DNA from: Thermoproteaceae archaeon
GTDB taxonomy: Archaea > Thermoproteota > Thermoprotei > Thermoproteales > Thermoproteaceae
DNA: 64,000 bases
NCBI GenBank assembly: GCA_020833025.1
Contig: JAJHRB010000001.1
Span: 12,277 to 76,276, forward strand
Direction: 5' to 3'
The notes beneath the pieces are model-generated. The model saw nothing but the letters and a program-made list of their open reading frames with translations. It had not been told where the DNA came from and searched no databases. The first letter of the stretch is position 1; each line of letters begins with the position of its first letter. Position numbers and translations under genes: made by a program. This document shows positions 3,503 through 9,008 of this stretch, piece by piece.

Positions 3503-3520
3503 TTAAAGTTAACTTTAAAT
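3503..3520 (+). promoter_or_regulatory. argG promoter: perfect 16-bp palindrome overlapping the TATA box
   Basis: TTAAAGTTAACTTTAA at 3503-3518; TTTAAAT at 3514-3520, about 24 nt upstream of ATG 3541. Confidence 0.65.
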
Positions 3521-3540
3521 TCATATTAACGAGAGCGAAC

Positions 3541-4757
3541 ATGGCGAGCAGCGCCTCGGGGCGAGCAGAATAGTACTTGCCTACTCGGGAGGTCTGGACA
3601 CCACGGTAGCAATAAAGTGGCTAAGGGAGAAGTTCAATGCAGAGGTTTATACTGTCACTGTTGACGTCGGGCAGGAGGAGGACTTTGCAGAGATTGAGGA
3701 GAGGGCATACAAGGCAGGCGCAGTGCAGCACTTCTACATAGATGCAAAGAGAGAATTCGCCGAGGAATACATATTTCGCTCTATTTTAATGAATGGAATG
3801 TATGAAGGGCTATACCCACTGGGGACCGCTCTGTCTAGGCCCCTAATAGCTAAGAGGGTTGTCGAGATAGCCAGAAGGGTCGGAGCAGACGCAGTGGCGC
3901 ACGGGTGCACCAGCAAGGGGAACGACCAGGTCAGGTTCGAGCTGACAATTAAGGCGCTCGCGCCTGACCTGAAAATCATAGCGCCGGCGAGAGTGTGGGG
4001 CATGACGCGCGCTGAGGAGCTTGAGTACGCCAAGCGTCACGGACTGCCTGTGAGCGCCGAGCACAGGAAATTCAGCATTGACGACAATCTTTGGTCGAGG
4101 TCAGTAGAGGGGGGCCCGCTGGACGACCCGGCCGCGGAGCCCTCGGAAGAGGTCTTCAAGTGGACGGTCGCGCCAGAGAAGGCGCCAGACAAACCGACGT
4201 ATCTGACGCTAGAATTTAGAGACGGGCTCCCAATTGCGATAAACGGCGAGAGAATGGACCCGCTCGCACTGGTGACCGCGCTTAACGGCATCGGCGGTGC
4301 AAACGGTATCGGCAGGATAGACCACATGGAGAGCAGGGTAGTGGGGCTTAAGAGCCGGGAGGTATACGAGGCGCCAGCAGCCGTGATACTGTACCACGCG
4401 CACAGAGACCTCGAGAAGCTCGTGCTCACGCCGCGCGAGCTGAGATTTAAGCACGGGATTCTTGACACCACGTGGTCGGACCTAGTGTATCAGGGCCTGT
4501 GGGTCGAGCCGCTGCGCGTGGCGCTTGAGAGGGCAGCAGAGGAGATGGAGCGGTGGGTGACCGGCACGGTGAGAGTAAAGCTCTACAAGGGCGCCCTCTG
4601 GATAGTGGGGAGGGAGTCGCCGTATAGTAGCTACAGCAGAGAGCTCGCCGACTACAATAGAGGGTGGTATCCGAGCGACGAGGAGGCCAGGGGATTCATT
4701 AAAATGTGGGGCCTCCACTCGCTGATCGCCATCAGGAGGCGCCGGCTGGCCGTCTAG
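3541..4757 (+). CDS. argG: Argininosuccinate synthase; start ATG out of frame, -1 shift needed near 3558-3561
   Basis: [13 protein letters not shown] from 3567, [22 protein letters not shown]. No ATG/GTG/TTG in frame before 3723; ATG 3541 reads [10 protein letters not shown]. Confidence 0.93.
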
Positions 4758-8188: not shown

Positions 8189-9008
8189 GCTAGAGACTGT
8201 GCGTACTGCAGGGCCTCGTCTCTCGATAGTCTCTGCCGGGGAGTTCCCTCGATGCCCGGCACTCCCCTCCCCCTCGCAGTTCTGGCAATAATCACTGCGG
8301 GTCTTGTGCTGCTCTCGGCCCTTTCAAGCGCCGAGACTATCTGCTCGTGGTCGTGCCCGTCGGTCTCGAGTACTTCAAAGCCGAGCGCTCTGAGCCTGCC
8401 CGGCAGGTCCCCCTTGCGCAGTACCTCCTCAACGCGCCCGTCGAGCTGTATGCCGTTGTAGTCCACTATCGCGAGGAGATTAGTCAAGTTGTAGTGTGCC
8501 GCCGCGGCGAAGGACTCCCAGCTTAGCCCCTCGTCGAGCTCTCCGTCGCCAGTTATTAAGTACACGCGACCTCTGTTGCCCCTCAGCTTGAGGCCCAGGG
8601 AGAGGCCGACCGCCATGCTTATTCCCAGAGCCAGCGAACCTGAGTTGGGCACGTCGACAAACGGCGTGTCTGCCTCGGGGTGGTTCTGGAGGCGGCTGCC
8701 CAAGCTACCGGACTCCCTCAGCTCGTCGAGCGCTAGATAGCCCATTGCCGCGGCGAGCGCGTAAATCGCGTGCACCGCGTGACCCTTAGACAGCACTAGG
8801 TAATTCCTGTTGCCCACGCCATTTGCTAGATTGAACTTCACTCTGCCAGTGCCGTAGAGCGCTACCAGTATGTCGAGCACCGAGAGAGACGACCCGAGGT
8901 GCATCCCGGGGTCGTAGCTCGCCATTAGGAGCAGGTATAGTCTCGCCCTGCACGCCAGCTCTCTCAGCTGCTGAACCCCGACCTCTCTAGTGCTGAGTAC
9001 CCCTGCAT
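8176..9008 (-). CDS. Transketolase, N-terminal (TPP-binding) subunit; start ATG out of frame, -1 shift needed near 8979-8976
   Basis: HLGSSLS, LSKGHA, GDGELDEG. The frame stays open upstream of ATG 8925 through the first helix (QQLRELACRARLYLLLMA) with no canonical start; ATG 9008 reads MQGYSALERSGFSS*. Confidence 0.9.

Follow-up and report, generated by a model that had tools for sequence, protein, structure and literature searches.

Hungry-codon −1 frameshifting is known from E. coli, where it has been described as slippage of a single tRNA in the P site (Gallant and Lindsley 1992; PMC8211752, PMC5009743). This one-tRNA slippage is independent of 3′ stimulators (PMC8211752), and a review leaves open whether it is put to any use in nature (PMC5009743). 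The only programmed −1 frameshift (−1 PRF) reported in Archaea as of 2021 is that of fucA1 in Saccharolobus solfataricus (PMC8211752). Here, we analyze the head of the argininosuccinate synthase gene (argG) of a Pyrobaculum genome from a hot-spring archaeon, which looks, on the evidence of its layout, like an undescribed way of sensing amino-acid shortage. A full-text search and reviews, a coverage outside which most subscription journals lie, returned no literature on Pyrobaculum, argG or amino-acid-sensing frameshift leaders.

The argG gene is divided between two reading frames. The window, by which we mean the whole stretch of 64,000 nucleotides that was analyzed, represents contig C61 of a MAG of the genus Pyrobaculum (G000; 126 contigs, 1.56 Mb, 63% GC). 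On its forward strand, a TATA-like box with a putative promoter function, TTTAAATT (3514 to 3521, with TTTAAA at 3514 to 3519), stands 27 nt before the ATG of a ten-codon leader ORF in the zero frame (3541 to 3573; ATG GCG AGC AGC GCC TCG GGG CGA GCA GAA TAG). Within the leader lies the slip site G GGG (3558 to 3561), which ends in the P-site codon GGG (3559 to 3561). Directly 3′ of it is CGA (Arg; 3562 to 3564), the candidate sensor codon in the A site, and at the leader stop TAG (3571 to 3573) unshifted ribosomes would terminate. The argG body continues in the −1 frame (GCG AGC AGA ATA GTA ...; 3561 to 4757, with its stop at 4755 to 4757) and encodes the ATP-binding motif AYSGGLDT at 3579 to 3602. 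The ArgG frame, whose codons begin at positions divisible by 3, is open from a TAA (3516 to 3518) that falls inside the TATA-like box, and from this TAA it contains no ATG, GTG or TTG until GTG 3723, which is 40 codons past the AYSGGLDT motif. An earlier note on this DNA had claimed precisely this arrangement, with a leader at ATG 3541 and a −1 ArgG frame devoid of a canonical start before the motif, and we confirm it base for base. The note had further proposed that tRNA-Gly re-pairs from GGG to GGG on G3558 to G3560; the sequence permits this, and the site is invariant in relatives.

The ORF from 3561 encodes a full-length argininosuccinate synthase. It scores 556 bits with NF001770 and 506 bits with TIGR00032, well above the respective curated cut-offs of 334 and 268 bits, residues 2 to 393 align to positions 5 to 397 of the NF001770 profile, and the N-terminal ATP-binding motif is present, which places the protein in the ArgG family. 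It is 74 to 80% identical to Pyrobaculum argG. Sequence comparison indicates that the ORF is full length and under purifying selection. The trans-frame product is predicted to begin MASSASG, with the N-terminal peptide MASSASGASR.

The two-frame layout is conserved among related Archaea. We obtained the argG sequences of 30 related genomes. Apart from G000, the 5′ end of argG is complete in 16 Pyrobaculum genomes, closed genomes of one contig among them, and each of these 16 has a leader-frame ATG and then [T/A]CG GGG CGA; a leader ATG with NCG GGG CGA also occurs in four Thermoproteus-type contigs. In three Caldivirga genomes, argG reads ATG GAT AAC CTG GGA CGA. The out-of-frame ATG and slip site, the conservation of which the earlier note had named as a check, are thus retained in 17 Pyrobaculum genomes, the four Thermoproteus-type contigs and the three Caldivirga genomes, at synonymous positions. 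An in-frame canonical start in relatives, which would have spoken against the note, is absent from 16 of 17 Pyrobaculum genomes (G000 counted). The exception is G002, which has a different upstream context and an in-frame ATG 7 nt upstream of its leader-frame ATG AAA TCG GGG CGA. We dropped the treatment of G002 as a plain exception, as the leader-frame ATG is present there too and at the better TATA spacing. The in-frame ATA 3570, which the note had considered as another possible start, is not conserved as one; relatives show ATA, GTA, ATT or ATC at this codon.

More distant relatives differ in the form of the gene head. Single genomes of two other genera (g2 and g7) have an argG with an ordinary in-frame ATG start. 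Two g6 genomes carry the leader ATG GAT AAT CTG GAA CGA CGT TGA, and Vulcanisaeta argG, also without a canonical start, has TTA AAC CGG in place of G GGG. The leader stop lies anywhere from 2 to 11 codons after GGG in relatives, so it is not a fixed reinitiation site.

The frame relation is found in three upstream contexts, namely an overlap with lysW, the own promoter of argG in G000, and the own promoter of argG in Thermoproteus. In 15 Pyrobaculum genomes, several of them closed, argG lies 3′ of the carrier-protein gene lysW (Pfam Zn_ribbon_LysW) and in the same frame, and the two overlap as ...GAC TAT GGC GAG TAA ATC GGG GCG AGY AAR... In these genomes, the lysW stop closes the enzyme frame two codons before GGG, and no ATG, GTG or TTG follows. 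The sole ATG is made by TAT-GGC of lysW in the +1 frame, and reads ATG GCG AGT AAA TCG GGG CGA GCA AGA TAG. The Thermoproteus-type contigs have their own TATA at −27/−28 and ATG CCY TCG GGG CGA, after which the leaders end in AGA AGA TAG, AGA TAA or GTA GAA TAA. In G000, lysW is now about 9.5 kb from argG and its product ends EDFGE. The ATGGCGAG stretch of the G000 leader matches the lysW-stop overlap of the relatives, which suggests that it is a relic of the lysW 3′ end. The leader is 3 nt longer than the overlap leaders, with the extra bases before TCG GGG. As ATGGCGAG is kept together with these three bases, a rearrangement appears to have swapped lysW for a promoter while the ATG and the frame relation were maintained.

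We propose that argG is expressed through a programmed −1 frameshift that doubles as an arginine sensor, in which tRNA-Gly in the P site slips while CGA awaits Arg-tRNA. On the sequence evidence, we regard this as probable. The mRNA would start at or next to ATG 3541 and would be leaderless, with the TATA-like box at −27. The ribosome would read MASSAS-G and come to hold peptidyl-tRNA-Gly on GGG 3559 to 3561, with CGA, which would be read by its own isoacceptor tRNA-Arg(UCG), in the A site. When charged Arg-tRNA is plentiful, CGA would be decoded, the leader frame kept, and translation ended at TAG 3571 without making ArgG. When charged Arg-tRNA is scarce, the A site would stay empty and tRNA-Gly could slip one base back onto G3558 to G3560. 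GCG would then enter the A site, and translation would run on into ArgG. A point against the proposal is that in the lysW-overlap genomes the ATG is internal to the operon mRNA and not leaderless, so initiation there would have to rely on coupling.

Features of the site fit slippage of one tRNA. Re-pairing of the P-site tRNA in the −1 frame is perfect (GGG to GGG), as in hungry-codon slippage. The site G GGG CGA is not an X XXY YYZ heptamer, since after the shift tRNA-Arg would face GCG. Only the P-site tRNA can therefore re-pair, which sets the site apart from canonical −1 PRF heptamers. RNAalifold on 16 sequences gave no conserved downstream structure (−6 kcal/mol, with no compensatory pairs), and the downstream fold of the window is weaker than that of shuffled sequences (z = +1.5). 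The lack of such a structure, together with re-pairing confined to the P site, fits one-tRNA slippage with an empty A site.

No other Arg codon is used as seldom in this genome as CGA (2.7 per 1000 codons; 3% of Arg codons), and the bodies of argG, with 35 Arg codons, and carA, with 34, do without it. With aragorn, we found one tRNA-Arg(TCG) gene and a gene for tRNA-Gly(CCC), in a tRNA inventory of the MAG that is incomplete at 18 genes even with introns allowed. Against the proposal, sensor codons elsewhere are not all rare: CTC has a share of 40% among Leu codons, and ACG makes up 49% of those for Thr. Ordinary long ORFs of this genome also contain NNG GGG in frame at as many as 1414 sites, with an observed/expected ratio of 0.88 and thus only a weak avoidance of in-frame G GGG, which indicates that the tetranucleotide alone is not a strong shifter. 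Judging from these counts, shift efficiency must depend on the waiting time at the A site or on a rare codon, and perhaps on closeness to the 5′ end.

Genes of other amino-acid pathways share the layout. We scanned the MAG for a leader made up of an ATG, NNG GGG and a stop, together with a long ORF in the −1 frame. This ORF had to score highest for coding among the six frames and to lack a canonical start upstream. Initial scans without the coding-score and start-codon filters did not discriminate, because a genome of 63% GC contains many long spurious ORFs. The filtered scan for G and the −1 direction returned 25 matches; in 17 of these, no start lay in frame within 10 codons. Seven controls, which combined other homopolymers and the +1 direction, gave between 0 and 4 matches each. 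All matches whose leader ATG stands, by eye, at TATA spacing are amino-acid genes in which the A-site codon specifies the gene's own end product. By eye, the distance from TATA to ATG is about 27 to 30 nt on the frameshift-leader genes here and on Thermoproteus argG. All slip sites fall within the first ten or so codons. Matches that we rejected as false comprise the C100 permease, L044, L045 (aCPSF-like) and several 3′ ends of upstream genes.

In about 15 leaderless amino-acid genes of this genome, identified with NCBIfam and Pfam, the codon next to G-GGG specifies the end product of the gene in question. This codon is CTC (Leu) in leuA (2-isopropylmalate synthase) and ilvB (acetolactate synthase), ATC (Ile) in cimA (citramalate synthase) and ileS (isoleucyl-tRNA synthetase), AAA (Lys) in the homocitrate synthase gene, ACG (Thr) in thrC (threonine synthase) and TTT (Phe) in pheA (prephenate dehydratase). 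The tkt gene of the aromatic operon (transketolase N) has both TAC and TTC (Tyr and Phe), carA and argG have CGA (Arg), and trpE and two trpB-like genes (trpB and trpB2) have TGG (Trp). For the ten unambiguous genes, the product of the chance probabilities expected from amino-acid usage is 1.4e-12, a calculation that leaves out Trp and Cys cases as ambiguous because GGG TGG and GGG TGT create an in-frame GTG. A lysX-like gene, with CCA and then CGG, shows no simple fit to the cognate-codon rule. In most relatives, ileS has an in-frame ATG 7 nt upstream, as does argG of G002, so some genes may have a second route to expression.

The pattern recurs in other genomes. In carA, the other head gene of the Arg pathway, TATA, 27 nt and ATG NNN NNG GGG CGA follow one another in 18 of 18 Pyrobaculum genomes, in most of which a TAA closes the enzyme frame directly 5′ of GGG. 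Caldivirga carA reads ATG ATG GGA CGA GCA TGA and overlaps an in-frame ATG. In the closed Pyrobaculum genomes G012 and G007, cimA reads ATG CCG GGG ATT ATG TAG, in which Ile has another, synonymous codon and the E-site codon differs too, while leuA has GGG CTC and trpD and trpB have GGG TGG. The ilvB leader of both genomes has three serial sites, followed by GTA (Val), CTT/CTC (Leu) and ATT (Ile), and these amino acids are the three products of the ilvB pathway. The pattern search in these two genomes was barely above its control (71 matches vs 56 in G012) and was used for candidate picking only; candidates found to be false were an internal homocitrate synthase site, an aldehyde ferredoxin oxidoreductase and long zero-frame ORFs.

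It is this agreement between codon and pathway that lends strong indirect support to the earlier note's idea of a hungry Arg codon, by which arginine starvation would switch on ArgG. The frameshift might instead be constitutive, with a fixed and perhaps low ratio setting ArgG output without any response to arginine, and with CGA merely slowing decoding. The architecture and its conservation demand recoding and are silent on regulation, and a rare A-site codon would raise slippage even without starvation. Nevertheless, a fixed ratio leaves unexplained the match between A-site codon and end product on about 15 genes, the serial Val, Leu and Ile sites of ilvB, and the use on other genes of codons as common as CTC and ACG. 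Thus, we consider a constitutive shift unlikely, and a shift that responds to arginine is the reading we prefer.

Sequence variation around the slip site indicates where the enzyme frame is entered. In an alignment of 16 argG 5′ sequences (A1), all 16 agree at the third positions of xTC, GGG and GCG in the enzyme frame, while all other four-fold sites in the next 27 codons vary. The codons just 3′ of the site, Ser (AGC/AGT) and Lys (AAG/AAA), vary synonymously in the enzyme frame, whereas the AGC/AGT change is non-synonymous (Ala/Val) in the leader frame. This suggests that the enzyme frame is already being translated at these codons. With the lysW stop closing the same frame two codons before GGG, entry into the enzyme frame would have to occur within xTC GGG GCG. 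The Tyr codon that creates the leader ATG is TAT in 15 of 15 lysW-overlap genomes, and TAT accounts for 15% of Tyr codons in G000. The lysW Tyr codon is TAC in three distinct contigs of the Thermoproteus type, in which a promoter and an ATG belong to argG itself (contigs L076 and L077 of this type are nearly identical in sequence). As judged from these alignments, the leader ATG is under selection.

These observations also bear on a reading that needs no frameshift, in which ArgG starts at a non-canonical codon of the enzyme frame (ATC, ATA, CTC or CTG) and the short ORF is a regulatory uORF or incidental. Existing annotation follows this reading, as NCBI gives the argG genes of relatives ATC, ATA or CTG starts, and database ArgG proteins begin MGASK.. 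(ATC), MGRIAL.. or MNRVV.. (ATA) or MAYSGG.. (CTG). Termination-reinitiation after lysW might tolerate non-AUG codons, and in the two g6 genomes an in-frame TTG shares bases with the leader stop (TTGA). However, no codon of the enzyme frame is conserved as a near-cognate start, and on this ground non-canonical initiation fails. The codon before GGG varies (ATC, GTC, AAC, CTC), x in xTC being A, G or C, with AAC in one genome and ATC as the only near-cognate start among these codons, and the later candidate is ATA, GTA, ATT or ATC. Furthermore, a leaderless mRNA needs a start codon at its 5′ end, and the codon found there is the out-of-frame ATG. Likewise, selection for TAT and a 3-nt indel that preserves the frame argue for use of this ATG, and leaders of one to three codons, as in cimA and ileS, leave no room for a second ribosome. 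A non-canonical start is therefore improbable, more so than a constitutive shift.

An event at the level of RNA, such as RNA polymerase slippage adding one G to the G4 run in some transcripts, is very improbable. The homopolymer does sit exactly where one extra base would fuse the frames, and some sites on other genes fall within the first 10 nt of the transcript. Yet four bases are far below known slippage tracts (PMC5009743), the G run of argG lies 18 nt from the start, and RNA polymerase would be blind to the identity of the following codon, which agrees with the product of the pathway. That G5 was turned into G4 in assembly or sequencing, or that argG is dead, is conceivable in a MAG of 126 contigs but has a negligible probability. 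G4 and the frame relation are shared by 16 other genomes, including several closed ones, and by 4 Thermoproteus-type contigs, G GGG CGA is invariant in every related Pyrobaculum genome, and the gene is full length and selected.

The pattern across genes points to a mechanism that extends beyond argG. We lean towards the view that the Thermoproteales (Pyrobaculum, Thermoproteus and Caldivirga) have a regulon-wide amino-acid control based on a −1 slip of tRNA-Gly at gene heads. Only through the slip would ribosomes reach the head gene of almost every amino-acid pathway and one or more genes for aminoacyl-tRNA synthetases (ileS). Slippage would take place on G GGG, or on G GGA, at a distance of a few codons from a leaderless start, and the A-site codon would name the amino acid that is sensed. 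Serial sites would act as OR gates, for Val, Leu and Ile on ilvB and for Tyr and Phe on tkt. Junction peptides predicted for the trans-frame products are short in the argG of relatives (SGASK), and MPGDYVEVLDTTLR is predicted for cimA of G012 and G007.

If the proposed mechanism is true, hungry-codon frameshifting, seen for 30 years as a starvation error, serves as a designed sensor. It would also be the first described amino-acid-specific translational control in Archaea, working without RNA structure or a protein regulator. Control of this kind would suit growth near 100 °C, where attenuator hairpins would melt. Across all Pyrobaculum and Thermoproteus genomes, present annotation would then be giving these genes invented ATC, ATA or CTG starts or truncating them. 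With a length of only about 10 nt, the site could act as a minimal amino-acid-responsive switch.

The proposed mechanism shares features with several known systems. As in the hungry-codon shift of E. coli, the P-site tRNA could re-pair perfectly one base back, and no 3′ stimulator is involved. The E. coli shift is an error in starved laboratory strains or reporters, with no known physiological use, whereas the argG site is conserved, lies at the head of the gene and appears to be the sole route to the enzyme. The argG shift resembles that of fucA1 in being an archaeal −1 frameshift that would join two ORFs into one enzyme; however, fucA1 has an A AAA AAT heptamer in mid-gene and a proposed downstream structure, and no sensing of a metabolite or an amino acid is reported for it (PMC8211752). 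Yeast Ty1 (CUU AGG C) likewise relies on P-site slippage driven by a rare Arg codon with a scarce tRNA, although there the shift is +1, the element is a retrotransposon, and the outcome is a set ratio instead of pathway feedback.

The release factor 2 gene, prfB, is the closest parallel in architecture. Both genes have a short zero-frame ORF, followed by a shift into the functional frame that is obligatory in prfB and apparently so in argG, and this arrangement is conserved in each. In prfB, the A-site codon is read by the factor whose supply the gene product controls, so that the frequency of shifting reflects this supply, and our proposal for argG parallels this. prfB shifts by +1 at a stop codon, which a protein factor reads, while argG would shift by −1 at a sense codon. 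Furthermore, prfB uses an internal Shine-Dalgarno stimulator, whereas the argG mRNA is putatively leaderless or has a variable upstream sequence, and prfB is one gene where here a set of pathway genes is found.

In function, the regulon-wide control would be an archaeal counterpart of attenuation and T-box control, built on the maintenance of the reading frame. Attenuation at trpL, hisL, leuL, thrL, pheL and ilvL also combines a very short leader ORF with end-product codons, and ribosome speed decides expression there, as it would on these archaeal genes. Leaders for more than one amino acid are common to attenuation (ilv) and to these archaeal genes. Attenuation works through alternative RNA hairpins and transcription termination, and its enzyme gene has its own start. 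The argG leader, by contrast, overlaps its gene, shows no conserved hairpin and leaves the enzyme without a start of its own, and the same ribosome that reads the leader would continue into the enzyme.

Slip-site leaders, in which an out-of-frame ATG is followed by G GGG and a codon for the pathway's own amino acid, also precede genes other than argG. The carA gene of the source genome (L033, G000:C46:11305-12446; relatives L047-L063) begins with such a leader. Its pattern, ATG NNN NNG GGG CGA at leaderless spacing, is found in all 18 of 18 Pyrobaculum genomes. The carA genes of two genomes, G016 and one from another genus (g2), carry an additional in-frame ATG immediately 3' of the slip site.

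The sequence around the argG leader in the window retains traces of lysW. Read in the enzyme frame, positions 3531-3566 give E-H-G-E-Q-R-L-G-A, which is similar to the lysW C-terminus and junction of relatives, E-D-Y-G-E-stop-I-G-A. Judging from this resemblance, the stretch is a relic, and lysW formerly lay ahead of argG in G000. Today lysW occupies minus-strand positions G000:C61:5981-6163, and its product ends in EDFGE.

Public annotation of Pyrobaculum and Thermoproteus ArgG (database proteins P0002-P0016; loci L076, L077, and L156) assigns invented starts, with ATC, ATA or CTG taken as Met, or alternatively truncates the protein to 341-367 residues. Other genes with a slip-site leader are likely to be misannotated in these ways as well.

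An aminoacyl-tRNA synthetase gene has a comparable 5' end. The leader of the G000 isoleucyl-tRNA synthetase (L034, G000:C50:15659-18750, minus strand) reads ATG GGG ATC TGA, and an in-frame start is absent across 50 codons. From these two features, it seems likely that this synthetase is gated by a codon for its own amino acid. In most of the relatives (among L079-L094), the 5' end is ATG NNN NAT GGG GAT, which provides both a leader, ATG GGG ATT/ATC, and an in-frame ATG 7 nt upstream. The amino acid encoded by the NAT codon differs (H/N/Y/D), while the AT is retained.

Some leaders contain serial slip sites. In two closed Pyrobaculum genomes, the minus-strand ilvB leaders (L149 in G012 and L154 in G007) have three G GGG sites. 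The codons behind these sites are, in order, GTA (Val), CTT or CTC (Leu), and ATT (Ile). Such an arrangement resembles an OR gate with one input for each branched-chain amino acid. The G000 ilvB leader has CCG GGA GTA and TCG GGG CTC. A genome scan also found a transketolase-N leader on the minus strand of the window (about 8964-9008), ATG CAG GGG TAC ... TCG GGG TTC ... TGA, with Tyr and Phe codons behind two slip sites. A candidate leader with two Ser codons (CCG GGG AGT and ACG GGG AGC), its zero frame open for 62 codons, precedes an ORF with no Pfam match (L142, G012:C1:1941275-1942020).

Other genera show variant arrangements. Vulcanisaeta-type argG genes (L021, L022, L024, and L027) likewise lack a canonical in-frame start; their conserved element is TTA AAC CGG rather than G GGG, within a GTG-initiated out-of-frame ORF. 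Here A AAC may serve as an alternative slip site ahead of the Arg codon CGG. The argG genes of another genus, g6 (L026 and L029), have a short leader, ATG GAT AAT CTG GAA CGA CGT TGA, whose stop overlaps an in-frame TTG. Caldivirga carA (L068, L069, and L071) has ATG ATG GGA CGA GCA TGA, with the leader stop overlapping the in-frame ATG. Because leader stops overlap in-frame starts in both cases, these short Arg-codon leaders suggest that the same control exists in a related form based on termination and reinitiation.
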